A DNA stretch of 64,000 nucleotides from Gaiellales bacterium (GTDB lineage Bacteria; Actinomycetota; Thermoleophilia; RBG-16-64-13), in NCBI GenBank assembly GCA_012719395.1, contig JAAYAL010000035.1:6084-70083 (forward strand), in the 5' to 3' direction. A program made the position numbers and the translations under genes. This document shows, one piece after another, positions 4,550 to 64,000 of the stretch. Under the pieces are notes generated by a model. That model searched no databases, was not told where the DNA came from, and saw only the letters and a list, made by a program, of their open reading frames with translations. The first letter of the stretch is position 1. Each line of letters opens with the position of its first letter.

Positions 4550-4591
4550 TCGCGCCACAGGCCGATCGTCGCGCGAGGCCAAGCTCTCCCC

Positions 4592-4610: not shown

Positions 4611-4620
4611 AACGGGGCGC

Positions 4621-5496: not shown

Positions 5497-5505
5497 TGGT
5501 ATAAG
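5497..5505 (+). promoter_or_regulatory. Extended -10 element (TGgTATAAG) upstream of aldolase gene
   Basis: The motif TGGTATAAG sits ~50 nt upstream of ATG 5558. The gene has a perfect SD, AAAGGAGGA at 5542-5550. Confidence 0.35.
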
Positions 5506-5557
5506 AGTCTGTCCCCCGGACTCCCCCACTTCTCCGTTCCCAAAGGAGGATAGCCGC

Positions 5558-48598: not shown

Positions 48599-48613
48599 TC
48601 CCGGGAATAGGCT

Positions 48614-49438: not shown

Positions 49439-49801
49439 GAGATGTGAGGTCGCGGTGACGGGGGAGGGCAATCATGGCAAACGGCGAGTCCCGAGTGAAC
49501 TCGCTTTCCGATCTATCATCGACTCTCCACTTACCGCTGCTTCTCGTACTCTTCGGAACCTCAGTTCCGTTTTCCTTCTACAGCGTTCCCGTGGTGAGTC
49601 TCCAGTTCGGTGCGTCTGAACTCTCGGGACTCTACTTGTATTGTAATCGACCGACCGGGCCTGTCAACCGTCCCTCCTGTCGAAAGATGCCGCAAAATGG
49701 GGCAACCGGGGGCGGACGGCCGTGCGCCGGCAGCGGACAGTCAGCCTTGCGGCTGAGGTGTTGACGCCCGCATGGCGTGAGGTTCCCGGCCCGGAGACGT
49801 G

Positions 49802-49810
49802 TGTTACAAT
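49802..49810 (+). promoter_or_regulatory. Extended -10 promoter element TGTTACAAT upstream of tRNA-Gly
   Basis: The TGn + TACAAT motif sits 18 nt upstream of the mature tRNA 5' end. Confidence 0.4.
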
Positions 49811-49827
49811 CCGGGCAGTCTTCGCGG

Positions 49828-49903
49828 GCGGAGTTAACTCAGCTGGTAGAGTGCCAGCTTCCCAAGCTGGATGTCGCGGGTTCGATCCCCGTACTCCGCT
49901 CCA
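49828..49903 (+). tRNA. tRNA-Gly (anticodon CCC)
   Basis: A cloverleaf was folded by hand. It has a 7-bp acceptor stem GCGGAGT/ACTCCGC, a D-arm ACTC/GAGT, an anticodon stem CCAGC/GCTGG with loop TTCCCAA, a T-arm GCGGG-TTCGATC-CCCGT, a discriminator T and an encoded CCA. Confidence 0.85.
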
Positions 49904-50069
49904 TTCTTTCTTCGCCCTTGCCCTCAGTAACCCAGCGGCGTTGCTCCGAAAGCCACGGTCCCCGCCGCCGTGCCCGGGTGTTCGAGTACCACTCTTCTCT
50001 GGCTTTACCCCCTCCGGTATACTCTGCGCGCCGCTGAGCGGCTCTGAAAACCGGGAAGTGGGTGACGAG

Positions 50070-50366
50070 GTGGATACACAGCCTGCCGAGCATGCAAAGC
50101 AGGCGGATACTACGCAGGTCCTGCACCGTTTGCGGCGCATCGAGGGCCAGGTCCGCGGACTGCAGAGGATGATCCAGGAGGGTCAGGAGTGTGAGGCCGT
50201 GCTGACGCAACTGTCGGCCGTCAAGTCGGCTCTGGACCGGGTGGGCGTGTTCCTCATCACGCATCGCATGAGGGAGTGCCTGCAGTCGTCCGATCAGACG
50301 CTGGATGAGCGGTCCCTGGAGCAGGCTTTTGAAGTCTTTCTCCGATACTCGCAATCTTTCAGGTGA
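50070..50366 (+). CDS. CsoR/RcnR/FrmR-family metal-sensing transcriptional repressor
   Basis: LRRIEGQVRGLQRMIQEGQECEAVLTQLSAVKSALDRVGVFLITHRMRECL carries the C-H-C metal ligand pattern. Its stop overlaps the trxB start. Confidence 0.7.
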   Translation: MDTQPAEHAKQADTTQVLHRLRRIEGQVRGLQRMIQEGQECEAVLTQLSAVKSALDRVGVFLITHRMRECLQSSDQTLDERSLEQAFEVFLRYSQSFR

Positions 50367-51340
50367 CGGGGGTCACGGTGGGTGCTGAGCCGGTGGCAAC
50401 GACTGATCTGCTCATCCTTGGTGGAGGGCCGGCCGGTTTGACGGCCGCCATCTATGCTGCGCGTGCCGGTGTGAAGACATTGGTGCTGGAAAGGCAGATG
50501 ACGGGCGGGCAAATCGCGACGTCGGAGCGGGTGGAGAATTTCCCCGGCTTCCCCGATGGTGTGGGTGGCATGGAGTTGTTGGAACTCTTCAAGCAGCAGG
50601 CGCTGCATTTCGGGGCGGAGATAAGGGAGATTGAGGAGGCGGAGGACTTTGTCCCCGGCGCTCCGCACCGCGTGGTGACTGGGTCGGGTACCTACGGCGG
50701 GCATGCAGTCATCATCGCCACCGGTCTGGACCCGCAGGGGCTCGGCTGTGACGGAGAGGATCGCTTTCGGGGCCGCGGGGTCTCGTACTGTGCCACCTGT
50801 GACGGCGCGTTCTTCCGCGATCGCACGGTGGCGGTGGTGGGAGGGGGGAATTCGGCGGTGGAGGAAGCGCTTTTCCTCACACGCTTTGCCCGCAAGGTCT
50901 ATCTCATCCACAGGCGCGACAAGCTGCGCGCGGATTTCGTGTTGCAGAAGCGGGCGCTTGAGAATCCCAAGATCGAGGCCCTGTGGACCGCTCAGGTGCG
51001 TGAGGTGCGAGGCGAGGACAAGGTCGAAGCGGTCTTGGTGGATTTCGCGGATCGCCAGGAGACCCGGGAGATCCCGGTGGATGGAGTCTTCCTGTATGTG
51101 GGGCAGAGACCGAACACCGGCTTTGTCAAGGAAGTGCTACAGATGGACCAGAGCGGCTTCATCATGACCACCCACCTGCTGGCCACCAACCTGGCCGGCG
51201 TGTACGCGGCCGGCGACTGCCGGTTCAATCCCATGAAGCAGGTAGTGTGGGCCGCGGCGGAAGGAGCGCTGGCGGCGCAGCAGGCCGGCAAGTACCTGGA
51301 AGAGGCGGGGGTGTGCCGTCTCGACGTGGAGCACGACTGA
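50363..51340 (+). CDS. trxB: Thioredoxin-disulfide reductase
   Basis: The redox motif CATCDG lies in GVSYCATCDGAFFRD. FAD-binding (ILGGGPAGLTAAIYAARAG) and NADPH-binding (VVGGGNSAVEEALFL) motifs are present. Confidence 0.9.
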   Translation: MTGVTVGAEPVATTDLLILGGGPAGLTAAIYAARAGVKTLVLERQMTGGQIATSERVENFPGFPDGVGGMELLELFKQQALHFGAEIREIEEAEDFVPGAPHRVVTGSGTYGGHAVIIATGLDPQGLGCDGEDRFRGRGVSYCATCDGAFFRDRTVAVVGGGNSAVEEALFLTRFARKVYLIHRRDKLRADFVLQKRALENPKIEALWTAQVREVRGEDKVEAVLVDFADRQETREIPVDGVFLYVGQRPNTGFVKEVLQMDQSGFIMTTHLLATNLAGVYAAGDCRFNPMKQVVWAAAEGALAAQQAGKYLEEAGVCRLDVEHD

Positions 51341-51581
51341 CGGTACTGGTGTGAGCACATGGTCTCGCTATGGATGGGTGGTGATCCTGCTCGTCGTTCT
51401 GGAGGTAGTGATGGGCGTGGGTGGGGCGTTGAGCGGCGCCCTCCTGCTGGCCGATCCGGAGAACGGGCTGGGCATGGCAACCGAAATCCTGCAGGGCAGT
51501 CCCTTCGGGGACTTCGCGATCCCCGGCATCATCCTGTTCCTGGCCATCGGCGTGCGGGCCGTGGCGGCACGGCCCGCACGG

Positions 51582-52406
51582 TCAGGCCAGCCGCTCAGTC
51601 AGCCAGGCCAGCACCCGCCGGTGTACCAGCGGCGAGCTCTGCAGGGAGGTGTGACTGCCCTCGGGGAACAGCCAGAGGTCGGCTTCATCACCGAGCGCTG
51701 CGGCCAAGTCCAGGGAGTGTTGGAAGGGGACTCTTTCATCGCCCCGGGCATGGGCGATCAGTACGGGGTTCCTCACCATCTCGGCGTCATCCGCCAGCCG
51801 ATGGTGACGGTAGAACTCGATGAGCGCCTCGTCGTCCAGCCGGGCCTCCAACCCATCGTTGGAGCGAGTGGACCACTCATGCTTCCTCTCCATGGCCCGC
51901 AGCAGGACCTCTTCGTTGGCGGGGCACAGCACGGCCACAGCGGCGAAGTCCGCATCGACGGCTGCCCTGACACCGTAGTAGCCACCCATGCTGGATCCGC
52001 GATAGCCGATGCGGTGGGGATCGACCAGCGGGTGGGTGCGCAGCAGGTTGACCGCGGCCAGGATGTCGCATTCCAAGGGACCGTCCGCCAGTCCTCCGCT
52101 GTCCCCGTGGCCTCGGAAGTCAATGCCCAGGACGGCAAAGCCCGCGTGACAGGCGTCAAAACAGAAGCCGCGATGGCGTGCGCGACAACTGCCTGCGCCA
52201 TGTGCCACGAGGAGGCCGGGCAGACGCGCGGGGCCGGGGTGGGCGTTTGCCGGCAGAAAAAGGGTAGCAGCCAGAAGTGGGGGCCTGCCCGCGTCGTCCG
52301 GCCGGCGGCCGGCGGTGTGCCGGTGCGCTGCCAAGCTGAGAAAGCGTAGGTCCTCGCAGAAGATGTCCGGCGGGCAGGGAAGGAAGCTATGGGCCTGGGA
52401 GGTCAT
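51582..52406 (-). CDS. Alpha/beta hydrolase (dienelactone hydrolase/peptidase S9-like)
   Basis: The nucleophile elbow GSSMGG lies in IGYRGSSMGGYYGV. GIDFRGHGDSGG is present. The hydrolase fold is 274 aa. Confidence 0.65.
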   Translation of the reverse strand: MTSQAHSFLPCPPDIFCEDLRFLSLAAHRHTAGRRPDDAGRPPLLAATLFLPANAHPGPARLPGLLVAHGAGSCRARHRGFCFDACHAGFAVLGIDFRGHGDSGGLADGPLECDILAAVNLLRTHPLVDPHRIGYRGSSMGGYYGVRAAVDADFAAVAVLCPANEEVLLRAMERKHEWSTRSNDGLEARLDDEALIEFYRHHRLADDAEMVRNPVLIAHARGDERVPFQHSLDLAAALGDEADLWLFPEGSHTSLQSSPLVHRRVLAWLTERLA

Positions 52407-52939
52407 ACGTTCAACTCCGCCAGGTGGGGGAGATTGCGGTGGAGTTGGCGGTAGTCGAAGCCATAGCCCACAAAGTACGTGTCTGGAACCGTGAAGCCGC
52501 GGTAACGGACGTCAAGGTCCACCAGCCGGCGGTAGGGGCGGTCCAGCAGGGTGCAGACTTCCAGGGAGCGAGGCTGCTTGGCGGCCAAGAAGCGCAGGAT
52601 GTAGTAGAGCGTGAGGCCTGTATCAATGATGTCCTCCACCACCAACACGTCCTTGTCGAAAAGAGGCATGCCGGCGTCTTTGGTGATCTGGATGTTGGAG
52701 GCTCCGGGAACGTCGTGGTCCTGTTGGTACGAGGATATGGCGACGTAGTCCATCTCCAGAGGCAGGGAGACCGCCCGGGCCAGGTCCGCCATGAAGAAGA
52801 CGGTGCCTTTGAGCACTGAAAGGAGCAGCAGGTTCCCTCCCTCGTAGTCCTGAGTGATCTCCCGGCCCATCTCGGTCACCCGCGCGGCGATGGCCTTGCC
52901 GTCCAGGTAAACGGGGCCGATCACTCCTTGCTGAATCAT
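52403..52939 (-). CDS. hpt: Hypoxanthine phosphoribosyltransferase
   Basis: The PRPP-binding motif lies in VLVVEDIIDTGLTLYYI. A flexible-loop motif is present, and the protein is 178 aa. Confidence 0.85.
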   Translation of the reverse strand: MIQQGVIGPVYLDGKAIAARVTEMGREITQDYEGGNLLLLSVLKGTVFFMADLARAVSLPLEMDYVAISSYQQDHDVPGASNIQITKDAGMPLFDKDVLVVEDIIDTGLTLYYILRFLAAKQPRSLEVCTLLDRPYRRLVDLDVRYRGFTVPDTYFVGYGFDYRQLHRNLPHLAELNV

Positions 52940-52961
52940 GTCCTGCCTCTTGCCTTGGCTC

Positions 52962-53330
52962 TCAGGAGGTCATGCTGAGGTTGTATTTCTTGGCCAGTTG
53001 CACGAAGTCCCGTTTCTGGAACAGCTTGACGTGGATGTCCGGGTACTTCTCCTGGAGCTTGCGCACTTTGCGATGCTTGGCTGTGGTGAGCGACTGCTTC
53101 ATCTCCGTCACCTCCAGATAGAGGTCAAGCTCCGGCAGGTAGAAATCCGGAGTGAACGCTTCCAGGATGTTACCGCGGTCATCTTGATCCAGGATGAAGG
53201 TGCGGGGCTCGTAGAGCCAGGGAACACGATAGTAGTCCAGGATTCGTGCTGCCTGGATCTCAGAGGCGGTAGCGAACCGTGGCGGCTTGTGGCCACGGTA
53301 GTACGAGAAAGGCAGTCTGTCTTCACTCAT
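52962..53330 (-). CDS. Hypothetical protein (lower-GC segment)
   Basis: MSEDRLPFSYYRGHKPPRF... is 122 aa with no recognised family. Start is taken at the internal ATG 53330; the track ORF extends to 53483. Confidence 0.4.
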   Translation of the reverse strand: MSEDRLPFSYYRGHKPPRFATASEIQAARILDYYRVPWLYEPRTFILDQDDRGNILEAFTPDFYLPELDLYLEVTEMKQSLTTAKHRKVRKLQEKYPDIHVKLFQKRDFVQLAKKYNLSMTS

Positions 53331-53429
53331 TCTCTGACGTAGTCTAGCAGAGCGGAAAGCGCGTCGGGGTGGGGCTCCTGTGCTACCGTTACTCGATTCA
53401 AATCGTACATCTCTCGTGGGGAACGCAGC

Positions 53430-54749
53430 ATGACGCATACGCTTATCTACCCTGTTCACTCGGCCCACAACACCGTGGGGCACTTGGAGATAGACGGCTG
53501 CGACGTGGTGTCACTGGCGCGGCAGTACGGTACCCCACTGGTTATCTACGAGGAGAAGACACTCCGTGACCAGTGCCGGCGGTTCGTGGAGGCGTTTCGA
53601 TTGCGCACGGCTGAATCGGAGATCATCTACGCCAGCAAGGCGTTACCGATCGTGGCCCTGTTCCAGCTGGTGGAGGAGGAGGGGCTGTCTCTGGATGTGG
53701 CGTCCGGGGGCGAGTACCACACGGCTTTGGCGGCCGGTTTTCCCACTGAACGGATTTTCTTCCACGGCAACAACAAGTCCCCCTGGGAGCTGGAGTACGC
53801 GCTGCAGCACGGCATCGGCACCGTGGTGGTGGACAGCGTGGACGAGATGGAACTGTTGGAGCGGTTGCTGCAGGTGCGTGGCGCTAGGCAGCGTGTCCTG
53901 CTGCGTATCACGCCCGGCATCGAGGCTCACACGCACGAGTACATCCAGACCGGGCAGATTGACTCCAAATTCGGCTTCGGCTTGGCGGGGGGAGCGGCGT
54001 TGGAATCCATCGGCCGGGCCATGGGCTCACCGTCGCTGGATCTGTGGGGTCTCCATGCGCACATTGGCAGTCAAATCTTCGAGCTGGATTCCTATCGGGG
54101 TGAGATTCGTGTGCTGGCGGACCTGATGCGGGAAGCGAAGGATCGCTTTGGCTTCGATTGCCGCTGGCTCAACGCGGGTGGCGGCTTGGGCGTACGCTAC
54201 ACGCCTGATGATTCGCCCGCCCCCATAGACTCCTACGCGGAGGTGGTCTGTCGCGGTGTGGAGGAGGAGATGGCTCGGGTGGGGCTGCCAATGCCGCGGA
54301 TCCTCATTGAGCCGGGGCGCTCGGTGGTGGCCAAAGCGGGAGTGACGGCGTACACCATCGGAACGGTCAAGCAACTACCGGGCATCCGCACCTACGTCAG
54401 CGTCGACGGCGGCATGAGCGACAATATTCGGCCCATGTTGTACGGGGCCAAGTACGAGGCCATGCTTGCCAACAAGGTGGAGCAGCAGCCGGACACCATG
54501 GTGACGGTGGCAGGCAAGCACTGCGAGAGCTCCGATATCCTGGCGCGGGATGTGGAGCTGCCTTCGCCGCAAGTGGGTGACACGCTGGTGATTCCGGCCA
54601 CGGGTGCCTACTGCTATGCCATGGCCTCCAACTACAACGGGAACCTGCGTCCCGCCGTGGTGATGGTGGAGGACGGGAAGGCCCGTATCATCGTCGAGAG
54701 GGAGAGCTTTGAGGACCTGGTGAAACGTCAGCGTCCTCTGCATGGATAG
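53430..54749 (+). CDS. lysA: Diaminopimelate decarboxylase
   Basis: The translation has a fold-III PLP decarboxylase layout (YASKALPIVALFQLVEEEGLSLDVASGGEY; HIGSQI; EPGRSVVA; CESSD). Confidence 0.9.
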   Translation: MTHTLIYPVHSAHNTVGHLEIDGCDVVSLARQYGTPLVIYEEKTLRDQCRRFVEAFRLRTAESEIIYASKALPIVALFQLVEEEGLSLDVASGGEYHTALAAGFPTERIFFHGNNKSPWELEYALQHGIGTVVVDSVDEMELLERLLQVRGARQRVLLRITPGIEAHTHEYIQTGQIDSKFGFGLAGGAALESIGRAMGSPSLDLWGLHAHIGSQIFELDSYRGEIRVLADLMREAKDRFGFDCRWLNAGGGLGVRYTPDDSPAPIDSYAEVVCRGVEEEMARVGLPMPRILIEPGRSVVAKAGVTAYTIGTVKQLPGIRTYVSVDGGMSDNIRPMLYGAKYEAMLANKVEQQPDTMVTVAGKHCESSDILARDVELPSPQVGDTLVIPATGAYCYAMASNYNGNLRPAVVMVEDGKARIIVERESFEDLVKRQRPLHG

Positions 54750-56043
54750 GATCCAGAGGAGCGTGCCGACTGTGGAGAAGGTGAAGATCGGACTGCTGGG
54801 GTACGGCGTGGTGGGCTCGAGCGTGTACCGCCTGCTCACCAAGGAGCGTGTTCGCATCCTGGAGGGCACGGGTGTGGACCTGGAGGTCACCCGCATCGCG
54901 GAGATGGATACCACCAAGCACGGTGCGGACGCCCCGGCCTCTCTCTTCACCACCGATGGCTCGGCTGTGGTGGAGGACCCGAGCATCGATGTGGTGGTGG
55001 AGCTGTTCGGCGGCGTGGATGCCGCCTTTGAGCTGATCAGCTGCGCCCTGCGGAACGGCAAGAACGTGGTCACCGCCAACAAGCAACTGCTGGCCAATCG
55101 GGGGGCGGCCCTCTTCGAGTTGGCACGGGAGAAGGGGCGCCAGATCCGGTTTGAGGCGTCGGTAGGGGGTGCCATCCCGATCATCAAGGTGATGCGGGAG
55201 AGTATGTTTGCGGCGGAACTCCACACCGTGTACGGCATCGTGAACGGCACCACCAACTACATCCTCACGGCCATGCTCCGGGGAGAAGGAGACTACGCGG
55301 CAACGCTGGCCCGCGCCCAGGAATTGGGCTACGCAGAGGCGGATCCCACCGCGGATGTGAACGGTGCCGACGCGGCCGCCAAAATGGCCATCCTGGCCTC
55401 CATCGCCTTCCATTCGCGCGTCACGCTGCAGGACGTGACCTTCGAAGGGATCGCCTCCATCCAGCCCGAGGACATCGCCTATGCGCGAGACCTGGGTTTC
55501 GTGATCAAGCTGGTGGGCTCAGCGCGTCTGCTGGATGAGCAGGTCAACGTGCGTGTGGCTCCCACTCTGGTACCGGCCGGGCACCCGCTGGCCGGCATCA
55601 ATGGCTCCTACAACGCGGTGCTGCTGGTGGGCCACGCCATCGATGAGATCATGCTGTCCGGCCCCGGCGCCGGCGGCCTGCAGACATCAACCGCCGTCAT
55701 CAGCGATATCGTCTCCATCGTCAGCACCAAGACCACCGGTTTCATGCAGAACTGCTCCTGTTACCGCGCGCTGCCGCTGCTGGCGGAGGAGGAGATGCGC
55801 TCCGCCTTCTTCATACGCGTGCGGGTGGAGGACCGGCCGGGGGTGCTGGCGCAGCTGGCCTCCATCTTCGGCGAGCGGGACGTCTCCATCGAGAGTCTTA
55901 TCCAAAAGGGCCACGGGGACCAGGCGGAGCTGGTCCTCATCACGCATCCTTCGCCGGAGAAGGACTTCCGTGCCGCCCTGGAGGCCATTGCCGGGTTGAG
56001 CAGCGTGCGCAGCCGGCCCATGACAATCCGTGTATTGGGGTAG
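54742..56043 (+). CDS. hom: Homoserine dehydrogenase with C-terminal ACT domain
   Basis: It has a Rossmann motif IGLLGYGVVGS, a catalytic region, and an ACT-like C-terminus (FFIRVRVEDRPGVLAQLASIFGERDVSIESL). It overlaps the lysA end by 8 nt. Confidence 0.9.
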   Translation: MDRIQRSVPTVEKVKIGLLGYGVVGSSVYRLLTKERVRILEGTGVDLEVTRIAEMDTTKHGADAPASLFTTDGSAVVEDPSIDVVVELFGGVDAAFELISCALRNGKNVVTANKQLLANRGAALFELAREKGRQIRFEASVGGAIPIIKVMRESMFAAELHTVYGIVNGTTNYILTAMLRGEGDYAATLARAQELGYAEADPTADVNGADAAAKMAILASIAFHSRVTLQDVTFEGIASIQPEDIAYARDLGFVIKLVGSARLLDEQVNVRVAPTLVPAGHPLAGINGSYNAVLLVGHAIDEIMLSGPGAGGLQTSTAVISDIVSIVSTKTTGFMQNCSCYRALPLLAEEEMRSAFFIRVRVEDRPGVLAQLASIFGERDVSIESLIQKGHGDQAELVLITHPSPEKDFRAALEAIAGLSSVRSRPMTIRVLG

Positions 56044-56066: not shown

Positions 56067-57401
56067 ATGGGATGTCCCGTGTTGTGTGTCATCAAGGAGG
56101 TCAAGAAGCAGATGTGCAGTGACGCCGTGTTCAATCCTTTCGTCGTGGCCCAGCGACAGTTCGATCGAGTAGCCGACCTGCTGGAGCTGGACGAGGCTAC
56201 CAGAGCCCTGTTGCGGGAGCCCATGCGTGAGTACCATGTCAGTATCCCCGTGCGCATGGATGACGGCCGGGTGAAGGTGTTTCGCGGCTTCCGCTGTCAG
56301 CACAATGATGCGCTGGGACCCAGCAAGGGCGGCATACGCTTCCACCCGCAGGAGACGGTGGACACCATCAGGGCGCTGTCTATGTGGATGACGTGGAAAT
56401 GTGCTGTGGTTGGCATCCCCTTGGGAGGGGCCAAAGGCGGCGTTATCTGTGACCCTCACGACCTGAGTGCCCGGGAGCAGGAAGGTATCTGCCGTGGCTG
56501 GGTGCGGCAACTGGCCAAGGTGGTGGGACCGCTCGCCGATGTGCCGGCGCCGGACGTGATGACCAATGCCGAGCACATGCTGTGGATGCTTGACGAGTAT
56601 GAGGCCATCCATGGGGGTCGCTTTCCCGGGTTCATCACCGGTAAACCGGTGGGGATGGGTGGCTCGCTGGGCCGTACGGAGGCCACCGGCTACGGGCTCA
56701 TCTTCACGGTGCGGGAAGCCCTCAAGGAAATGGGCATGGACATCGCTGAGACCACAGCCAGCGTGCAGGGTTTCGGCAACGTGGCCCAGTATGCCGTTGA
56801 GCTTTACCAAATGATGGGGGGCAAGGTCACGGCCATCTCCTGCTGGGACCAGGTGGCCTGCACTCCCTTCGCCTACCGCAAGACGGCCGGTGTGGACCTG
56901 GGGGAGTTGCGTGGTGTCACCGATCGTTTCGGCGGGATAGACCAGGAGAAGGCCGCGGCGCTTGGCTACGAGCCCATCCCGGGCGAGAAGTGGCTGGAGC
57001 AGGACGTGGACATCCTGATCCCGGCTGCCATGGAGAACCAGATCACGGCGGAAGCCGTGGGTCGCATCTCCGGCCGCGTGAAGCTGATTGCCGAAGGGGC
57101 CAATGGGCCCACGGCTCCCGAGGCCGATCCGCTCCTGGTTGAGCGGGGCATCGTGAATATCCCGGACTTCCTGGCCAACGCCGGTGGAGTCACCTGCAGC
57201 TACTTTGAGCAGGTCCAGAGCAACATGAACTTCTACTGGCCGCGAGATGAGGTCCTGGGGCGGCTGGACACCAAGATGACCGACGCCTTCCTGGCGGTCA
57301 GCGAGTTGGCGCGGAGGCGCAACCTGTCATTGCGTGACGCGGCGTACGTCATCGCCGTGGATCGAGTGGCAAAGGCCAGCAAGGACCGTGGCTGGGTCTG
57401 A
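56067..57401 (+). CDS. gdhA: Glutamate dehydrogenase (Glu/Leu/Phe/Val dehydrogenase family)
   Basis: The catalytic Lys region GPSKGGIRFHPQ is present, together with GIPLGGAKGGV and the NAD(P) motif QGFGNVAQ. A possible alternative start lies at Met 56114. Confidence 0.85.
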   Translation: MGCPVLCVIKEVKKQMCSDAVFNPFVVAQRQFDRVADLLELDEATRALLREPMREYHVSIPVRMDDGRVKVFRGFRCQHNDALGPSKGGIRFHPQETVDTIRALSMWMTWKCAVVGIPLGGAKGGVICDPHDLSAREQEGICRGWVRQLAKVVGPLADVPAPDVMTNAEHMLWMLDEYEAIHGGRFPGFITGKPVGMGGSLGRTEATGYGLIFTVREALKEMGMDIAETTASVQGFGNVAQYAVELYQMMGGKVTAISCWDQVACTPFAYRKTAGVDLGELRGVTDRFGGIDQEKAAALGYEPIPGEKWLEQDVDILIPAAMENQITAEAVGRISGRVKLIAEGANGPTAPEADPLLVERGIVNIPDFLANAGGVTCSYFEQVQSNMNFYWPRDEVLGRLDTKMTDAFLAVSELARRRNLSLRDAAYVIAVDRVAKASKDRGWV

Positions 57402-59142
57402 CAAGGAGCACCGGGGGCTGTTCCCCCCGTTCGATCGTCGCTTCTTTGAGAGTGACGCCACATTCACGCGCGTAGGTACCGGAGTGCTCGGGGGCAAGGC
57501 CGAAGGCCTTGCCTTCGTGCATGCGGAGGTCATCTCCCTGCTTAGCGGCGGCTGCCCGAACGGTGTTGAGGTGTCCGTTCCTCGGATGATGGTCATTGCC
57601 TCCGACATGTTTGACGCCTTCATGCAGCGCAACCGCCTGGAGGAGTCGGCCGCCGACGGTGCGCCGGATGAGCGGGTGGCTCACGCGTTCATGCAGGGTG
57701 AGCTTCCGGCCGAGATGCTGGGTGACCTGCAGGCGCTGGTGGAATCGGTACGTTCACCCTTGGCTGTGCGCTCCTCTTCGCTGCTGGAAGACGCACTCGC
57801 GCATCCTTTCGCCGGTGTCTACGGGACCAAGATGATCCCCAATCACCAGCCGGCGGCCTCCGACCGTTTCGCCAAGCTGACGGAGGCGGTCAAGTTCGTG
57901 TACGCCTCTACCTACTTCTCGGCGGCCAAGGCGTATCGTCAGGGTCTGAGGATACCGGAGGGTCAGGAGAAGATGGCCGTCATTGTGCAGGAGGTCATAG
58001 GGGAACGGCACGGGTCGCGCTTCTACCCGGAGGTCTCGGGGGTGGCCCGCTCTTACAGCTACTACCCACTCCCCGGCGCGCGGTCGGAGGAAGGGATGGT
58101 GAGCTTGGCGCTGGGTTTGGGTAAGACCGTGGTCGACGGTGGGACCTGCTGGACGTACACGCCGTCTCGCCCTTCCGCGCCGCCGCCTGTGGGTTCGGGC
58201 CGGGCGCTGCTCGACGCAACACAGACGAACTTCTGGGCGGTCAACATGGGGGCGGCTCCATACGATCCTGCACGGGAGACGGAATACCTGTTCCAGCCCT
58301 CTCTTCAGGAGGCGGAAGGCGACGGCACACTGCTCCACCTGGCATCCACGTATGATGCGGTCTCGGACCGGGTGAGGCCGGGAATCGGCCGGCCGGGCCC
58401 GCGGGTCCTCAACTTCGGGCCCATGCTGGAGCTGAGCACGATTCCTCTCAACGACTGCGTGAGGGCCATGCTCGCCTGCTCGCGGGAGAGGCTGGGTTGC
58501 GAGGTGGAGGTGGAGTTCGCCGCTTGTCTGGCCGGGCGCCGGCGGGAGACCACCAAACTGGGGTTCCTGCAGTTGCGTCCCATGGCCTCTCCCGGTTCCT
58601 ACGTGACGGTGGACGTGGAGGACCTGTGGGGCGACGAAGTGCTGCTGGCCTCCGAGCGCTGCCTGGGCAACGCTGTGGTGAGCGACATCCGCGATGTGGT
58701 GTATGTGAAGCCCGGCAGCTTCGATGCGGGCAAGACCGGGAGGATTGCGCAGGAAGTGGGAGCGATGAACCGGGCTTTGCTGGCGGAGGGAAGGAAGTAC
58801 GTGCTCATAGGCTTCGGTCGCTGGGGGACGTCGGACCCCTGGCTGGGCATCCCCGTGGAATGGGGACAGATCTCAGGGGCGGGTGTGCTGGTTGAGGCGG
58901 CGCTGGACACCATGCAGCCGGAGATGAGCCAGGGTTCCCACTTCTTCCACAATCTCGTCAGCACCCACACGCTGTTCTTCTCCGTGCCACTGGGCGCCGG
59001 TCCGCAGGTGGACTGGCAGTGGCTCAAGCGGCAGGAAGTGGTGCGGGAATCGGACCATGTCCGGCATGTGCGGGCCGCAACTCCCCTGTCCGCCCATGTC
59101 GATGGCAGAAGCGGCCGGGGAGTGGTCATGCACCATGGCTAG
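57334..59142 (+). CDS. PEP/pyruvate-binding (PPDK_N / PEP synthase N-terminal ATP-grasp-like) domain protein, paralog 1
   Basis: The motifs VGTGVLGGKAEGL and AVRSSSLLEDALAHPFAGVYGT match PPDK_N motifs (GGKAANL; AVRSSAT.ED...SFAGQ). A conserved C-terminal block is present: GFGRWGTSDP...SQGSHFFHNLV. There is no PEP-utilizer C-domain. The start is ambiguous: no ATG/GTG/TTG lies between the gdhA stop and the GGK motif, and CTG ~57418 is preceded by AAGGAG. Confidence 0.65.
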   Translation: MTRRTSSPWIEWQRPARTVAGSDKEHRGLFPPFDRRFFESDATFTRVGTGVLGGKAEGLAFVHAEVISLLSGGCPNGVEVSVPRMMVIASDMFDAFMQRNRLEESAADGAPDERVAHAFMQGELPAEMLGDLQALVESVRSPLAVRSSSLLEDALAHPFAGVYGTKMIPNHQPAASDRFAKLTEAVKFVYASTYFSAAKAYRQGLRIPEGQEKMAVIVQEVIGERHGSRFYPEVSGVARSYSYYPLPGARSEEGMVSLALGLGKTVVDGGTCWTYTPSRPSAPPPVGSGRALLDATQTNFWAVNMGAAPYDPARETEYLFQPSLQEAEGDGTLLHLASTYDAVSDRVRPGIGRPGPRVLNFGPMLELSTIPLNDCVRAMLACSRERLGCEVEVEFAACLAGRRRETTKLGFLQLRPMASPGSYVTVDVEDLWGDEVLLASERCLGNAVVSDIRDVVYVKPGSFDAGKTGRIAQEVGAMNRALLAEGRKYVLIGFGRWGTSDPWLGIPVEWGQISGAGVLVEAALDTMQPEMSQGSHFFHNLVSTHTLFFSVPLGAGPQVDWQWLKRQEVVRESDHVRHVRAATPLSAHVDGRSGRGVVMHHG

Positions 59143-61897
59143 GCCTCCGTCCGAGGGTCGTAACGGAGAGCGCCGTGCACGTGCGCGGCGCGCATCGCCC
59201 GCCAAGAGAGTCATGCGCTCCCTGCAGGAACGTGCCAAGGAGCTCAACTGTCTCTATCGGGTGGAGGAGGTACTGAGCAAGCCGGACCTGCCGGTGGAGA
59301 AGGCTCTGCAGGAGATCATCGAGGCTCTGCCGGCCGGGCTGCAGTACCCGGAGCCCTCGCAGGCTCTGATCCGTTTGGACAGTCGGGAGTACAGCTCCTC
59401 GGGCTACGGCGTGAGCCCCTGGCGCGTGGCGGTTCCTCTGCGGCGTGGGCGCGAGGTGGTGGGCGAGATTGAGGTCTCGTACTCGCAGCAGGTGCCCCAG
59501 GCCGACAGCGGGCCGTTCCTGCGGGAAGAGGTGCGCCTGGTCAACGCCATCGCCGACAGGCTGGGCATCTACCTGGAGAGGCGTGCTCCGGGGCCGGCCT
59601 CTGAACAGTGGAGAGGCGCGATCAACCTTCTGCGGGAGGCGGACCGTGATCTCTTCGTTCGTGTGGCGCGGCGCATGATCCGTCATCTGTACTGGGTGAA
59701 CGTGGAGGATGCCCGCGAGGTGCTCGAGCGCACCGGGCACCGGCAGGTCTCGGACGCCGAGGGAGCAGGATGGTCTGAGAACCGGCCGGAGGAGAAGGCC
59801 ACCTGGGACGACGCCTACTACATGACCAATGCGCCCTTTGATCTGGCTGCACGTCACCTGAGCGGCGATGAGATCCTTCACCTGGTGCAGACCTGGATGG
59901 CGGAGGAGAGGTCCAGCCTGTTGGCCAAGATCGTCAGCAACCGGCAGACCTCGATCGTGGATATCACCCGGGCCTTACGACGGTACAAAGAGCAGATGCC
60001 GGATGAGGGCCGTCTGCCCGCCGTTGCCCAGAAGGGCACGGTGGTGTCGTTGATCCGGCGCTTTCTCAGTGAAGACCTGGAGTTCATTGGCAAGGCCAAG
60101 AGGAATCTGAAGGCCACCGACTTCCTGGAAATCACCGAGAAGACCGTGTACTCGCGGGAGAGCCGGGGGAGGATCGGGGGCAAGAGCACGGGACTCTTCC
60201 TGGCCGGCAGGATCATGGGGCCCAACCAGCACCTGCTGCAGGGCGATTTCGAGATCAAGGTGCCCAACTCTTGGTATGTTGCTTCCGAGAGCATCGTGGA
60301 GTTCATGGAGCACAACGACCTCCATGACTGGACGCTGGAACAGAAGTACAAGGACTCCGACCGTATCCGGCGCGAGTACCCCATACTGGTGCAGTTGTTC
60401 AAACACTCCCAGTTTCCCCCCGACCTGGTCACCGGCCTGTCCATGGCGCTGGATGATTTTCAGAACCGACCCATCATCGCGCGCAGCTCCAGCCTGGGAG
60501 AGGACAGGCAGGGCACCGCTTTCTCCGGCAAGTACAAGAGCCTCTTCTTGGCCAACCAGGGGTCCAAGAAGGTCCGTCTGGATGCGCTGCTGGATGCCAT
60601 TGCCGAGATCTACGCCTCTATCTTCGGCCCCGATCCTATCGAGTACCGGCGCGAGCGAGGTCTCCTCGACTTCGACGAGGAGATGGGGATTCTGCTGCAG
60701 GAGGTGGTCGGCACCCGCGTGGGGCATTACTACTTCCCTACCTTCTCCGGGGTGGCTTTCACCAACAACGAGTTCAGTTGGTCGCCGCGTATCGCGCGCA
60801 GCGATGGGTTGCTGCGACTGGTGCCCGGGCTTGGGACCAGGGCGGTGGACAGGGTGGGCGATGACTATCCTGTCCTCATCGCGCCCGGCAAACCCGGGTT
60901 GCGCGCCAACGCATCGCTGGACGAGAAAATCAAATATGCACCGCGCATGATCGATGTCATGGATCTGGAAGTGGGATCCTTCAAGACGCTCTCACTGGAA
61001 GGGCTGTTGAAGGAGGAGGGCCTTTCCTATCCCGACTTCCGACTGGTGTTCTCCACGCTACAGCGTGACCGGTTGGTACCGCCGTCGCCGGTGCTGGCGG
61101 ATCCGCGTCGGGAGAATATGGTTGCCACTTTCGAGGGGTTGCTGGGCAGCACCACTTTCGTGAAGCAGATCTCCACGCTGATGCGGTTGCTGGAGGAGGG
61201 TCTGGAGTCGGCGGTTGACGTGGAGTTCGCGTGTGAGGGGCGCAGTCTCTATGTGCTGCAGTGTCGCGCGCAGAGCTACGCGGCCAACGAGGCGCCGGCG
61301 CCCATCCCCTCCGACATCGCAGAGGCGGACGTCCTCTTTCGAGGCCACAAGCACATCAGCAACGGCACGCTCCCCGATATCCGCTACGTGGTGTACGTGG
61401 ATCCGCTCGCCTATGCCGGCCTGGCAAGCTTGGCGGAGCTCAAGGCGGTGGGTGAGGCCGTGGGCCGGCTCAACCAAACGCTGCCGCACCGTCGCTTCAT
61501 CCTCATGGGCCCCGGTCGCTGGGGGAGCCGGGGCGACATCAAACTAGGGGTCAGCGTCACCTACTCCGACATCAACAACACCGCCATGCTCGTGGAGATC
61601 GCCCGCCGGAAGGCCGGTTACTCCCCCGACCTCTCCTTCGGCACCCATTTCTTCCAGGATCTGGTGGAGTCATCCATTCGCTACCTCCCCCTCTACCCGG
61701 ATGAGGACCAAGGTGTGCTGAACGAGCGGCTGCTGCTGGAGGCGCCCAACCAACTCGCCACCTTCGCGTCGGCATTCGCGGCGCTGGGACGCGTGGTGCG
61801 GGTGGTCGACATTGCCGAAGTCACGGGGGGAGGGCGGCTGCGGGTGGCCATGAATGGAGAGCGGCAGGAGGCACTGGGCTACCTGGTGCGCGTTTGA
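59135..61897 (+). CDS. PEP/pyruvate-binding (PPDK_N-like) domain protein, paralog 2, with ~400-aa N-terminal extension
   Basis: The motifs GRIGGKSTGLF and IIARSSSLGEDRQGTAFSGKY are present. The C-terminal block GPGRWGSRGD...SFGTHFFQDLV is paralogous to the upstream gene. The ATG at 59135 overlaps the upstream stop (ATGGCTAG). The track ORF starts at 59057. Confidence 0.65.
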   Translation: MARPPSEGRNGERRARARRASPAKRVMRSLQERAKELNCLYRVEEVLSKPDLPVEKALQEIIEALPAGLQYPEPSQALIRLDSREYSSSGYGVSPWRVAVPLRRGREVVGEIEVSYSQQVPQADSGPFLREEVRLVNAIADRLGIYLERRAPGPASEQWRGAINLLREADRDLFVRVARRMIRHLYWVNVEDAREVLERTGHRQVSDAEGAGWSENRPEEKATWDDAYYMTNAPFDLAARHLSGDEILHLVQTWMAEERSSLLAKIVSNRQTSIVDITRALRRYKEQMPDEGRLPAVAQKGTVVSLIRRFLSEDLEFIGKAKRNLKATDFLEITEKTVYSRESRGRIGGKSTGLFLAGRIMGPNQHLLQGDFEIKVPNSWYVASESIVEFMEHNDLHDWTLEQKYKDSDRIRREYPILVQLFKHSQFPPDLVTGLSMALDDFQNRPIIARSSSLGEDRQGTAFSGKYKSLFLANQGSKKVRLDALLDAIAEIYASIFGPDPIEYRRERGLLDFDEEMGILLQEVVGTRVGHYYFPTFSGVAFTNNEFSWSPRIARSDGLLRLVPGLGTRAVDRVGDDYPVLIAPGKPGLRANASLDEKIKYAPRMIDVMDLEVGSFKTLSLEGLLKEEGLSYPDFRLVFSTLQRDRLVPPSPVLADPRRENMVATFEGLLGSTTFVKQISTLMRLLEEGLESAVDVEFACEGRSLYVLQCRAQSYAANEAPAPIPSDIAEADVLFRGHKHISNGTLPDIRYVVYVDPLAYAGLASLAELKAVGEAVGRLNQTLPHRRFILMGPGRWGSRGDIKLGVSVTYSDINNTAMLVEIARRKAGYSPDLSFGTHFFQDLVESSIRYLPLYPDEDQGVLNERLLLEAPNQLATFASAFAALGRVVRVVDIAEVTGGGRLRVAMNGERQEALGYLVRV

Positions 61898-62057
61898 AGC
61901 CCCGGTCCTGGAGCAAGGGTCCGCATGGCGGTCGCTTTCGCACGGGCGGGCAGTCGTGCTATAGCTTGAAAGAGAGGGTCGGGCGGCAGAGCCGGGCTCT
62001 CGTGCTCGTCCCACGCATCCACCGGTCCTGACAAGTCAGTGCGGCAGGGGAGGGCGT

Positions 62058-63482
62058 ATGAGTCAGCACAGGCCGAGGGCCGTGGCCCTCATTGACGGCG
62101 AACACTATCCGGATGTGGTGGCTCAATCTCTGCGGAGCCTGAGTGATCGCTACCAGATGGTGGCGGCGGTATTCCTGGGAGGTACGGAGAAGATCCGGGG
62201 AACGGACCTGGGGGCGGTGGCGCAGGAACTGTACGGCCTCCCCGTGGTGATTGGAGCCGAACCGTTGGCGGCAATGGAGCAGGCCCTGTCGCAGTACGAA
62301 CCGGACTGTGTCGTTGACGTCAGCGACGAGCCGGTGGTAGGATACGCAGAGCGGTTCCGGTACGCCAGCTTCGCGCTTGCCCGGGGCGTCGCCTATTTGG
62401 GTTCTGACTTCCGCTTCTCACCCCCGCTATTTGAGCACCTCGCGTCGGCGCCCTCGCTTTCCATCATTGGAACGGCGAAACGGGTGGGTAAGACGGCCCT
62501 GAGCGGGTATGTCGCGCGTGTGCTGCAACGAGAGCTGTTCGGTGGGGAAGGTTCGGGACGAGGGGTCGTCATTGTGCCCATGGGTCGAGGTGGCCCGGTG
62601 GAGCCTGAGACCATCGACGGCCTGCAGCGCCAGATATCATCCCGTGAACTGCTGGCCTGGAGCAGGCAAGGTCGCCACGCGGCTTCGGATCACTTTGAAG
62701 ACGCGGTGCTCAGCCGAGTGACCACGGTAGGGTGCCGGCGTTGCGGCGGGGGTCTGGCCGGGCAGGTCTTTGTGAGCAATGTGGCGCAGGGTGTGCGGGT
62801 AGCGAACCGGCTGGATCCGGGTCTGTTGATTGTGGAGGGGAGTGGGAGCGCCATTCCGCCGGTGTATGCGGACGCGCGCATATGCCTGGCTGGGGCGCAC
62901 CAACCGTTGGAGTATGTCGTGGGCTACTTCGGGACCTACCGGCTCCTGGTGAGCGACGCGGTGGTGGTGGCCATGGCGGAGGAGCCTCTGGCCTCCAAGG
63001 AGAAGGTGGAGAGACTTATTGAAGGCATCCGGGAATTGAAGCCCAACATGCCGGTGGTGCCGGTGGTGTTCCGGCCACGGCCGTTGGAGGATGTGCGCGG
63101 CCGCCGGGTGGCGCTGTTCTCCACCACCCCGCCGTCCATGGAATGGGTGGTGCGCCGGCACCTGGAGGCAGAGTATGGCTGCAGCGTGCGCCTGTTCTCA
63201 CCCAATCTCTCTCGCCGCCCTCTGCTGAAGCAGGACCTGGAACGGCAGGAGATGGAGGAGGTGGACGTGGTCTTGACGGAGATCAAGGCTGCGGCCATTG
63301 ACGTGGTGGCGGAGGCGGCGGACTCCAGGGGGCGGCCGGTGGTCTTCGTAGACAACGATCCGGTGGAGGTGGCGCCGGCGCAGCCGGGAGACCTGGTGGC
63401 CATGTGCGTGCAGGCGGCAGCCACGGCCCAAGCACGATTCGCCGCGGGTGCGGGTCGCCATGATGGCGGGTGGGCGCAATGA
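62058..63482 (+). CDS. Cyclic 2,3-diphosphoglycerate synthetase-like protein (P-loop)
   Basis: It is 474 aa with the Walker A motif IIGTAKRVGKTA. Its size and P-loop resemble archaeal cDPGS (~460 aa). Its stop overlaps the start of a 2-phosphoglycerate-kinase-like gene (ATGA), giving archaeal cpgS/pgk2-like pairing. This is called from memory of the family and context, not from a database search. Confidence 0.55.
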   Translation: MSQHRPRAVALIDGEHYPDVVAQSLRSLSDRYQMVAAVFLGGTEKIRGTDLGAVAQELYGLPVVIGAEPLAAMEQALSQYEPDCVVDVSDEPVVGYAERFRYASFALARGVAYLGSDFRFSPPLFEHLASAPSLSIIGTAKRVGKTALSGYVARVLQRELFGGEGSGRGVVIVPMGRGGPVEPETIDGLQRQISSRELLAWSRQGRHAASDHFEDAVLSRVTTVGCRRCGGGLAGQVFVSNVAQGVRVANRLDPGLLIVEGSGSAIPPVYADARICLAGAHQPLEYVVGYFGTYRLLVSDAVVVAMAEEPLASKEKVERLIEGIRELKPNMPVVPVVFRPRPLEDVRGRRVALFSTTPPSMEWVVRRHLEAEYGCSVRLFSPNLSRRPLLKQDLERQEMEEVDVVLTEIKAAAIDVVAEAADSRGRPVVFVDNDPVEVAPAQPGDLVAMCVQAAATAQARFAAGAGRHDGGWAQ

Positions 63483-64000
63483 GCTCCTCCGGCGGCTCAC
63501 CACCTGTGGTCGGCTCCTTCTCTCACGGCTTCCCGGAACACATCCGGATTGTGAGCCAGGAGCACTCGCTCCCGTTCTCCAAAGGCATTCTCTCCGAATC
63601 GCTCACGGCCACCGGCCTCCCGCCGCAGCGCGCCTATGCCGTGGCGCAGTTGGTGGAAGGGAGTCTTCGCCGGAGGGAATCGCTGGAGATAGCCCTGGAT
63701 GACCTGCGGAGCCTGGTGATGGCCAGTCTGGCCGAGAATGAGGAGCCGCTCTTTGTTGATCGGTACCAGAAGTGGCAGGAATTGACCGCATCCAACAGGC
63801 CTCTCATCATCGTGATAGGCGGTGCCACCGGAGTGGGCAAGAGCACGCTGGCCTCGCAGGTAGCGGCTCGGCTGGGCATTGTCCGGCTCATCTCCACCGA
63901 CACCATCCGCCAGGTGATGCGCGCTTTCTTCTCCTCCACACTCATGCCTTCCATCCATTGCTCTTCCTTCGATGCCGAGAAGGCGGTGCGCGTGCCGTTG
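63479..64000 (+). CDS. 2-phosphoglycerate kinase-like protein (ATP-cone + P-loop kinase), 3'-truncated by window edge
   Basis: The N-terminus has an ATP-cone-like segment (IRIVSQEHSLPFSKGILSESLTATGLPPQRAYAVAQLVEGSL). This is followed by IIVIGGATGVGKSTLASQVAARLGIVRLISTDTIRQVMR, which resembles the 2PGK P-loop and STD.IRE motif. Confidence 0.6.
   Translation, partial: MSSSGGSPPVVGSFSHGFPEHIRIVSQEHSLPFSKGILSESLTATGLPPQRAYAVAQLVEGSLRRRESLEIALDDLRSLVMASLAENEEPLFVDRYQKWQELTASNRPLIIVIGGATGVGKSTLASQVAARLGIVRLISTDTIRQVMRAFFSSTLMPSIHCSSFDAEKAVRVPL

Follow-up and report, generated by a model that had tools for sequence, protein, structure and literature searches.

Does a bacterium carry its own route to cyclic 2,3-diphosphoglycerate (cDPG), a compound that has been described as exclusive to hyperthermophilic methanogens (PMC10690619)? 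We addressed this question for two adjacent genes, cpgS and a 2-phosphoglycerate kinase-like gene (2pgk), at the 3′ end of a stretch of 64,000 nucleotides (hereafter the window; Table 1). A sequence-only reading had taken them for a cDPG synthetase (cDPGS) gene translationally coupled to a 2-phosphoglycerate kinase (2PGK) gene, and had regarded the pair as notable in a high-GC bacterium, pointing either to horizontal acquisition or to an unrecognised bacterial system. The bacterial host was confirmed, as the Rho protein encoded at this locus is 84-91% identical to those of Actinomycetota MAGs, and the exact CpgS protein is deposited in GenBank as that of a Gaiellales bacterium, under the name "2,3-diphosphoglycerate synthetase".

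Table 1. Positions in the window of the cpgS-2pgk features discussed in the text.
Feature	Position	Strand	Basis or remark
cpgS, cDPG synthetase homologue, 474 aa	62058..63482	+	PDB match, ligand residues, AF2/Foldseek, PF27272; identical to NLT35361.1
Shine-Dalgarno-like purine-rich GGGGAGGG, shortly 5′ of the cpgS ATG	62047..62054	+	inferred from sequence reading
GGTEK-motif codons T43-E44-K45, CpgS_N domain of cpgS	62184..62192	+	E44/K45 correspond to M. fervidus E45/K46
cpgS Walker A / P-loop GTAKRVGKTA, aa 138-147	62469..62498	+	K141, R142, K145, T146 correspond to M. fervidus K145, R146, K149, T150
ATGA start/stop overlap, cpgS and 2pgk-like gene	63479..63482	+	sequence
2-phosphoglycerate kinase-like gene, 5′ part (173/324 codons), cut at window end	63479..64000	+	NF003259
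ATP-cone-like N-terminal domain of the kinase, aa 32-101	63572..63781	+	PF03477, E 1.3e-4, sub-threshold
Kinase P-loop GGATGVGKST, aa 114-123	63818..63847	+	sequence reading

The product of cpgS, whose N-terminus reads MSQHRPRAVALIDGEHY, matched the solved cDPGS of Methanothermus fervidus (PDB 8ORK) in a phmmer search with an E value of 1.5e-116, with aa 7-440 aligned to chain residues 6-436, and a second solved cDPGS (9SXB) with an E value of 9e-104. No significant match to CpgS came from local Pfam-A and NCBIfam libraries, which do not include PF27272, and its identity was settled by the PDB sequence search and by precomputed Pfam labels, which place PF27272 (CpgS_N) on the cpgS product. By sequence comparison, CpgS is related to the crystallised M. 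fervidus enzyme at orthologue grade over its full length, and the sequence-only reading, which had recognised a cDPGS-type P-loop protein from its size and motif, was right on this point. A CobQ/DTB-synthetase-like ATPase, the alternative named in that reading, was rejected, since AAA_26 reached an E value of only 0.25 on this protein, compared to 1.5e-116 for the solved cDPGS.

We then compared the residues that bind 2,3-DPG, Mg2+ and ADP. In M. fervidus these are E45, K46, K145, R146, K149, T150, D208, E305, T353, E404 and K406, of which E45 and K46 extend into the 2,3-DPG site of the other subunit, D208 is the Mg ligand, and E305, T353, E404 and K406 bind the nucleotide beyond the P-loop (PMC10690619). 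All of them are kept in the window protein (E44, K45, K141, R142, K145, T146, D211, E308, T356, E408 and K410, respectively). The named residues, the equivalent of the Mg ligand (D211) and the E44/K45 pair included, are invariant in alignment A2; in the wider alignment A4 (59 sequences) they are invariant or at least 90% conserved, with K45 in the former class and E44 in the latter. The AF2 model of CpgS (pLDDT 94.7, pTM 0.92) was placed by Foldseek best on the ligand-bound structure 8ORU (TM 0.90/0.93, rmsd 1.9 Å, E 3e-51), and the runner-up had an E value of only 1e-5. Hence, the window protein and M. fervidus cDPGS (8ORK/8ORU; De Rose et al. 2023, PMC10690619) share a similar length (474 compared to ~460 aa), a two-domain plan of a unique N-terminal domain and a P-loop core, the ligand residues, the predicted fold and 44% identity over the full length (A2). 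They differ in the host, here a Gaiellales bacterium of 66% GC, in a short Gly-rich insertion of lower pLDDT after the P-loop helix of the window protein (aa ~160-168), and in its 30-aa C-terminal tail, which has no counterpart in the PDB chain.

The downstream kinase gene is cut at the window end, and its full 324-aa product was taken from a near-identical contig (L003:1521-2495), which differs from the window by one nucleotide in 2001. The partial product matched the NCBIfam 2-phosphoglycerate kinase model NF003259 with an E value of 2.4e-49, and the full-length protein matched it with an E value of 5e-90 (301.9 bits, model positions 5-295 of 306), ahead of a second 2-phosphoglycerate kinase model, NF008994 (E 2e-86, 290.4 bits). 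The next-best NCBIfam family lies far behind these two equivalogs at 134 bits, which argues against the generic P-loop kinase that had been named as the alternative, and with E values of 1e-116 and 5e-90 against families that are characterised or curated, a chance match is excluded for both genes. The two scores of the kinase are under the curated equivalog cut-offs (343 bits for NF003259 and 603 bits for NF008994). Because 301.9 bits fall short of the former, NCBI leaves the kinase unnamed as a 2PGK, and its orthologues appear there as "hypothetical", "zeta toxin family" or "ATP cone domain-containing", and at JGI as "2-phosphoglycerate kinase". The best family thus supports a putative 2-phosphoglycerate kinase, in agreement with the first reading of its P-loop and STD-IR motif.

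This agreement extends to the architecture of the protein. Compared to archaeal 2PGK (NF003259/PRK04220; COG2074), the alignment spans almost the entire model, the ATP-cone and P-loop kinase arrangement and the ISTD-IR motif are kept, and the substrate of the window kinase is a predicted one. Across 52 orthologues, nine of the ten P-loop residues are invariant, the exception being A116, as are I138, D141 and R144 in the motif LISTDTIRQ (aa 137-145). In the AF2 model (pLDDT 87.8), a beta-hairpin/helical domain at the N-terminus (aa 23-104) precedes an NMP-kinase-like P-loop domain, for which Foldseek found CMP, UMP and adenylate kinases. The ATP-cone, which had been claimed for this gene, stood at the level of the family: PF03477 matched 44 of the 52 orthologues (best E 2.4e-10) and the predicted fold agrees with it, whereas the window sequence itself scored 22.2-22.8 bits, under the gathering score of 25.8. 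Sequence and model together support an ATP-cone plus P-loop kinase architecture for the 2PGK-like family. There is no solved structure for the 2PGK family, so the comparison of the kinase rests on sequence and fold.

The two genes overlap by four nucleotides, as had been read from the sequence: the stop codon of cpgS (TGA, 63480-63482) shares two nucleotides with an ATG (63479-63481) that opens the kinase frame. Translational coupling, which had been deduced from this overlap, is less firm, as the kinase start is ambiguous, with GenBank using a GTG at 63551 (300 aa, NLT35362.1) and ENA/JGI the overlapping ATG (324 aa). An in-frame start within -17 to +15 nt of the cpgS stop is found in 48 of 52 bacterial loci, and the overlapping ATG appears to be the more likely start codon; it would give the kinase an N-terminal extension of ~20 non-conserved aa relative to NF003259. 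In the same genome, glpX follows 2pgk after 13 nt (TIGR00330, 269 bits, over the cut-off), and is itself followed by rho. Between 61700 and 64000 we found no terminator and two promoter-like matches, both within coding sequence, and an Rfam search of the whole window gave one tRNA-Gly only and nothing near the cpgS-2pgk locus. In view of the start/stop overlap, cpgS, 2pgk and the downstream class II fructose-1,6-bisphosphatase gene (glpX) may form one expression unit.

Among the bacterial loci retrieved, a 2pgk homologue adjoins cpgS in 53 of 56, as the next gene in 51 of them and as the preceding gene in two (L078 and L081), and it lies directly 3′ of cpgS in 51 of the 53 actinobacterial loci. 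It also adjoins cpgS in Methanolliviera (L052). This adjacency points to a functional partnership of the kinase with cDPGS. The core locus reads hom – (metallophosphoesterase) – cpgS – 2pgk – glpX/fsa – rho, and the flanking core genes of the window stand in the conserved order lysA-hom ... cpgS-2pgk-glpX-rho. Relatives carry fsa/tal and/or glpX behind 2pgk, and those in Anaerolineae carry iPGM, which supplies 2PG. An example of the metallophosphoesterase gene is L005:5197-5937. The actinobacterial operons with a metallophosphoesterase, cpgS, 2pgk, an optional fsa and glpX (MAGs of Thermoleophilia, Gaiellales, Aquicultor and Geothermocultor; L005-L051, L053, L055, L060, L061, L073 and L083) share with the window the order cpgS-2pgk between hom and rho, with glpX downstream. 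Unlike them, the window and an 80%-identical relative have no metallophosphoesterase directly upstream of cpgS; no match to this enzyme at E<1e-5 was found in the 64-kb window, which instead has a glutamate dehydrogenase gene and two PPDK_N-domain genes at that position. These three genes were rejected as members of the system, since none of the best 80 related loci has a counterpart to them, and since cpgS directly follows hom in the 80%-identical relative.

The co-location of the two genes also bears on whether they could be neofunctionalised paralogues that make no cDPG, the synthetase homologue catalysing another ATP-dependent reaction or the kinase taking another acid. A precedent is ArcE (TK2200) of Thermococcus kodakarensis, a demonstrated distant relative of cDPGS in the same P-loop superfamily, widespread in bacteria, whose substrate is altogether different (PMC11032458). 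Functions vary within the 2PGK superfamily as well, where the model of an enzyme with another substrate, mevalonate-3-phosphate 5-kinase (NF008996), scores 89.7 bits on the window kinase, and this kinase is below the curated cut-offs. However, the similarity of ArcE to cDPGS is reported to be "low" (PMC11032458), whereas the 44% identity seen here spans the full length, including the N-terminal domain and its E/K pair, and probably puts the window protein on the cDPGS side. ArcE is found in the genomic company of arcB and arcC, while neither ornithine transcarbamylase (OTC) nor carbamate kinase genes were present among the flanking genes scanned. The presence of both genes side by side in 53 of 56 bacterial loci argues for linked substrates. 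We consider neofunctionalisation very unlikely.

We also asked whether the pair could be a methanogen island newly acquired by this bacterium. Methanogens are where the pathway was discovered, an archaeal cDPGS is the only one that we found characterised both biochemically and structurally, and Methanobacteriales nest beside some bacterial sequences in a midpoint-rooted neighbour-joining (NJ) tree built from the best 80 loci by similarity to the query. In this same tree, however, the actinobacterial cpgS genes form deep clades of their own, and the window CpgS is 40-48% identical to archaeal proteins, compared to up to 65% to other Actinomycetota (best tblastn segment) and 95% and 80% in metagenome protein clusters. 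The Methanobacteriales moreover keep the genes apart, with no 2pgk within 6 kb of cpgS, while the window has both in one operon. The codon-position GC of cpgS (0.73/0.47/0.77) is coding-like and close to that of the rest of the window (65.6% GC), and its core flanks stand in conserved order, with Rho highly similar across the same loci. The syntenic core locus across dozens of actinobacterial species, together with the deep cpgS clades, makes a recent archaeal island extremely unlikely. Hence, the pair is not a one-off recent import; judged from the sequences, the operon is an old one that has been passed on vertically within a large clade of actinobacteria, Thermoleophilia/Gaiellales and relatives among them. 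An inter-domain transfer of cpgS did happen at some point, and the midpoint-rooted tree of the best 80 loci cannot give its direction. Of the two options in the sequence-only reading, the bacterial system is thus favoured over recent acquisition.

The pair proved less rare than had been assumed. Relatives of cpgS amount to more than 7,998 database homologues at E<1e-10, with about 218 representative clusters at E<=1e-30 and at least 446 species genomes, and GenBank and JGI already name proteins of this type cDPG synthetase. The pair is already partly annotated in GenBank and is shared by many uncultured actinobacteria. The genome of the window is also carried by the digester samples ERZ778039 and ERZ764825. 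Among the named cluster members and the best 80 genome loci, all of them MAGs, there was no cultured bacterial carrier, and the genome paper of Gaiella occulta does not mention cpgS or 2pgk. Our literature searches returned no paper that links the cDPG pathway to Bacteria, and bacterial cDPG production is a candidate put forward from the genes.

Taken together, the pair is real and probably functional, and we consider it likely that both genes, in a vertically inherited operon with glpX, encode an ATP-dependent route from 2-PG via 2,3-DPG to cDPG. The 2PGK-like kinase would convert 2-PG and ATP to 2,3-DPG and ADP, and cDPGS would then convert 2,3-DPG and ATP to cDPG, ADP and Pi, the 3-phosphate attacking, Pi leaving and the phosphoanhydride ring closing. 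The active site of cDPGS would span the dimer, one subunit contributing its P-loop domain and the other E44/K45 of its N-terminal domain. The pathway could also end at, or mainly serve, 2,3-DPG, either to provide phosphoglycerate mutase with a cofactor or regulator or with the synthetase running in reverse (cDPG/2,3-DPG to ATP) as a phosphagen-like buffer. The neighbouring genes belong to central carbon metabolism (glpX, fsa/tal and, in Anaerolineae, iPGM), and the metallophosphoesterase upstream in relatives could recycle phosphates. An older proposal, reportedly made by Gorkovenko and Roberts in 1993 for Methanobacterium thermoautotrophicum, of cDPG as a phosphate and energy store on a gluconeogenic branch would suit such a role. 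However, the cyclising enzyme is retained with intact catalytic residues everywhere the kinase is, which would be unnecessary were 2,3-DPG the end product, and this reading is in our view improbable.

We infer that cDPG is made in this bacterium, where it may act as a polyanionic stress-protective solute and as a phosphate and carbon reserve feeding into gluconeogenesis, rather than as a dedicated thermoprotectant of hyperthermophiles. A purely thermoprotective role is doubtful, as the isolate names of the operon-bearing MAGs point to soil, groundwater, permafrost and bioreactors, suggesting non-thermal habitats. On a more tentative level, the Thermoleophilia/Gaiellales radiation and its relatives might run a full cDPG cycle from a single operon, in which 2PGK and cDPGS make cDPG, the upstream metallophosphoesterase breaks it down and glpX/fsa lead on to gluconeogenesis, the hydrolase having been lost or moved in the lineage of the window; we think this possible but rather unlikely. 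If true, the metallophosphoesterase would be the long-missing cDPG (or 2,3-DPG) phosphohydrolase, mesophilic soil and groundwater members would carry the cycle too, and cDPG would be a widespread bacterial buffer of phosphate, carbon and energy and a stress solute, instead of an archaeal trait confined to hyperthermophiles.

Bacterial cDPG would add to the phospho-solutes known from Bacteria, and would make cpgS questionable as a genomic marker of thermophily, papers on ammonia-oxidising archaea listing cDPG synthetase among thermophilic traits. Enzymes from high-GC bacteria and a compact natural operon would also become available for the biotechnological production of cDPG, which groups are now trying to engineer with the enzyme of M. 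fervidus. The conserved operon partners (metallophosphoesterase, FBPase and F6P aldolase/transaldolase) are candidates for steps in cDPG turnover. Regarding growth temperature, the IVYWREL fraction over three shared genes did not discriminate habitats between loci; for the window proteome as a whole the fraction is 0.413, which, with a formula said to come from Zeldovich et al. 2007, corresponds to a rough optimal growth temperature of ~52 °C.

By every sequence and structure feature tested, the product of cpgS is a cDPG synthetase (cDPGS), with predicted catalytic activity. Its residues 7-440 matched two Methanothermus fervidus cDPG synthetase entries among the PDB sequences (E about 1.5e-116), and a third solved cDPGS was matched at E 9e-104. 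The residues that contact 2,3-DPG, Mg2+ and ADP in the M. fervidus enzyme (K145, R146, K149, T150, D208, E305, T353, E404 and K406, with E45 and K46 contributed by the partner subunit; PMC10690619) are all kept in the alignments. An AlphaFold model, with 59 homologues in the alignment, was very confident (pLDDT 94.7, pTM 0.92), and its top PDB match was ligand-bound 8ORU (TM 0.90/0.93, rmsd 1.9 Å, E 3e-51), the next unrelated match lying at E 1e-5. The local Pfam and NCBIfam profiles gave no match to the 474-aa protein because the sets used lacked the newer family PF27272 (CpgS_N), which is the precomputed label of every database homologue. The protein is less likely to work as an arginine synthetase of the ArcE kind, since ArcE is only distantly similar to cDPGS (PMC11032458) and the cpgS product keeps the cDPGS-specific N-domain and the 2,3-DPG contacts. 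The sequence-only reading, which had proposed a 474-aa P-loop ORF with cDPG synthetase identity, thus stands on both points.

Features of the locus and of related loci (window positions unless a locus is named)
Feature	Position	Strand	Remarks
argS, lysA, hom	46925-56043		upstream of the pair; lysA 53430-54749, hom 54742-56043
tRNA-Gly(CCC)	49828-49903		
Insertion between hom and cpgS	56079-61897	+	GDH gene and two overlapping PPDK_N-only genes
Glutamate dehydrogenase (GDH) gene	56079-57401	+	
First PPDK_N-only gene	57388-59142	+	584 aa
Second PPDK_N-only gene	59135-61897	+	920 aa, weak GAF-like N-region
cpgS	62058..63482	+	474 aa; codon-position GC pattern that of genuine genes in the 65.6% GC window
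cpgS Walker A motif GTAKRVGKTA	aa 138-147		from sequence
Equivalents of M. fervidus E45, K46, K145, R146, K149, T150	E44, K45, K141, R142, K145, T146		from alignments
Equivalents of M. fervidus D208, E305, T353, E404, K406	D211, E308, T356, E408, K410		from alignments
cpgS stop TGA	63480-63482		overlapped by ATG 63479-63481 opening the 2pgk frame
glpX, then rho, after 2pgk	L003:2509-3513 and 3556-4824		
Reversed 2pgk-cpgS loci	L078:4781-5977; L081 pgk2 match 5075-5932		
iPGM after cpgS	L054:7398-9029; L056:4397-5974		in place of 2pgk
Metallophosphoesterase gene, examples	L005:5197-5937, L030:5099-5992, L047:5153-5995		calcineurin-like; 50 further loci

The second gene, 2pgk, runs for 173 codons before the window ends; the remainder of the locus is supplied by contig L003, which differs by 1 nt in 2001 and encodes a full-length product of 324 aa. 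The 2-phosphoglycerate kinase (2PGK) identity claimed for it was supported by NCBIfam model NF003259 ('2-phosphoglycerate kinase'), which matched the window fragment at E 2.4e-49 and the full-length product at E 5e-90, with a score of 301.9 bits and coverage of positions 5-295 of the 306 in the model, and by a second 2PGK model (290.4 bits), the following families being far lower (134 bits, then mevalonate-3-phosphate 5-kinase at 89.7 bits). Both leading scores are under their curated cut-offs (343 and 603, respectively), which explains the GenBank name of the gene, 'hypothetical protein GXX83_05645', and the labels 'zeta toxin family' and 'ATP cone domain-containing' given there to its orthologues; in the JGI annotation the orthologues are 2-phosphoglycerate kinase. 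The proposed ATP-cone N-domain was detected in 44/52 kinase orthologues, and in a confident AF2 model (pLDDT 87.8) a hairpin/helix domain at the N-terminus precedes a P-loop domain like that of NMP kinases, but in the window sequence the ATP-cone is sub-threshold (22.8 vs 25.8 bits). No solved 2PGK structure exists for a comparison of substrate-binding residues.

The ATGA overlap said to couple the two genes is present (63479-63482), but the kinase start is disputed: the ENA and JGI calls use the ATG overlapping the cpgS stop (324 aa), whereas the GenBank protein NLT35362.1, 300 aa long, would begin 24 codons further on, at GTG 63551. The NCBIfam 2PGK alignment starts at residue 21, so a functional protein could result from either start. 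For 48 of 52 loci an in-frame start codon was located between -17 and +15 nt relative to the cpgS stop (most commonly at -8, -4 and +4), an undemanding test where GC content is high.

Synteny was examined by tblastn of the window proteins against the 80 loci with the highest similarity to the query. Bacteria account for 56 of these (53 from Actinomycetota and one each from an Anaerolineae, a Gemmatimonadetes-labelled and an unclassified genome) and archaea, mostly Methanobacteriales, for 24. A 2pgk homologue adjoins cpgS in 53/56 bacterial loci. In 51 of these it comes immediately after cpgS, and in the Gemmatimonadetes-labelled MAG (L078, with a 4-nt overlap) and the unclassified MAG (L081) it comes immediately before, so the pairing is kept even where gene order varies. 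Two of the three other loci are contigs ending at or inside cpgS, and the third, Anaerolineae MAG L054, has an iPGM (cofactor-independent phosphoglycerate mutase) in the 2pgk position. Judged by sequence, a kinase acting on a substrate other than 2-PG is possible, but it is hard to square with this strict pairing. No 2pgk was found within 6 kb of cpgS in the Methanobacteriales loci. An iPGM also takes the place of 2pgk in a 'Thorarchaeota' MAG (L056); the L054 and L056 iPGMs share 58% identity, and the two cpgS genes group together in the tree, suggesting inter-domain transfer or a mis-binned contig.

On L003, a gap of 13 nt separates 2pgk from glpX (class II fructose-1,6-bisphosphatase, TIGR00330, 269 bits, above the cut-off), and rho comes next; the full order hom ... 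cpgS-2pgk-glpX-rho is common to about 25 loci. In other loci, a gene for a fructose-6-phosphate aldolase/transaldolase (TIGR00875, 295 bits) replaces glpX or is added to it. Junctions are 1-13 nt in the operon of 2pgk, glpX and, in many relatives, the aldolase/transaldolase gene, before rho (L003 and the JGI contig carrying P0004). This continuation of the operon ties the cDPG genes to gluconeogenic and pentose-phosphate metabolism.

Upstream, a metallophosphoesterase gene (PF00149; 50-80% identical among loci) abuts or overlaps the cpgS start in 53/53 actinobacterial loci, and none was found within the 64-kb window. Judged by its gene neighbourhood, the conserved enzyme is a candidate cDPG or 2,3-DPG phosphohydrolase, and on the same ground it might, as a less probable reading, be the missing hydrolase of a bacterial cDPG cycle in relatives of the window. 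In the window, cpgS is instead preceded by the GDH gene and the two PPDK_N genes, both of the latter without a phospho-histidine or PEP-binding domain. These three genes have no counterpart in the 80 related loci, and in an 80%-identical relative cpgS directly follows hom; the block is thus a species-level (lineage-specific) insertion, and its membership of the cDPG system was rejected.

The exact cpgS protein is GenBank NLT35361.1, on an 85-kb contig, correctly named by automated annotation ('MAG: 2,3-diphosphoglycerate synthetase [Gaiellales bacterium]'), and an exact-protein look-up placed it on seven metagenome contigs. Rho shares 84-91% identity with its counterparts in Thermoleophilia/Gaiellales MAGs. 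With argS, lysA and hom upstream and rho downstream (on L003), the locus resembles the argS-lysA-thrA-thrC-thrB-rho backbone of mycobacteria. Between hom and rho, neither thrC nor thrB was seen. In a neighbour-joining tree, the window cpgS groups with the genes of two MAGs, one from Gaiellales and the other an Actinomycetota MAG from a digester, inside deep actinobacterial clades and apart from the Methanobacteriales/M. fervidus clade; the tree is midpoint-rooted on a biased sample (the 80 loci closest to the query), so the direction of transfer is not readable from it. Together with the synteny across actinobacterial loci, this placement indicates that the pair forms a long-standing operon in a core locus, passed on vertically, and is not a recent island. 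Of the two options in the sequence-only reading, horizontal acquisition is therefore disfavoured as a recent event, and an unrecognised bacterial system is favoured. An inter-domain transfer must have occurred at some time.

The cDPG synthetase family and the pathway are already known. The protein database contains more than 7,998 homologues of the cpgS product with E<1e-10, and many of them bear the name cDPG synthetase. A 50%-identity representative library has 218 clusters at E<=1e-30, and at least 446 genomes with a relative were found when each species was represented by a single genome. In the literature searched, we found no recognition of the two-gene pathway as a conserved Actinomycetota operon and no evidence of cDPG in Bacteria, and recent papers call cDPG exclusive to hyperthermophilic methanogens (PMC10690619). 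This gap is probably because the bacterial carriers, among the loci and named relatives examined, are all uncultured MAGs.

The classical two-step route is the best-supported reading; homology, fold, a conserved active site and the operon arrangement are shown. By this route 2-PG would be converted to 2,3-DPG and this to cDPG, the presumed product, using two ATP overall, with the synthetase chemistry put forward for M. fervidus (PMC10690619). It is also possible that 2,3-DPG is the end product, or that the route operates in reverse as an energy buffer. The thermoprotectant label is the weakest part of the reading. The IVYWREL fraction of 58 predicted proteins in the window (0.413) gives, by the Zeldovich formula, a rough optimal growth temperature of about 50-52 C with a large error, consistent with a moderately thermophilic digester organism; however, the operon also occurs in MAGs from soil, permafrost, groundwater and deep mines, judged by isolate names. 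The constant gluconeogenic and pentose-phosphate neighbours, and the iPGM in Anaerolineae, suggest a link of the two-step route to lower glycolysis and gluconeogenesis. The same neighbours hint at a phosphate/carbon-reserve function, an idea reportedly raised long ago for Methanobacterium.
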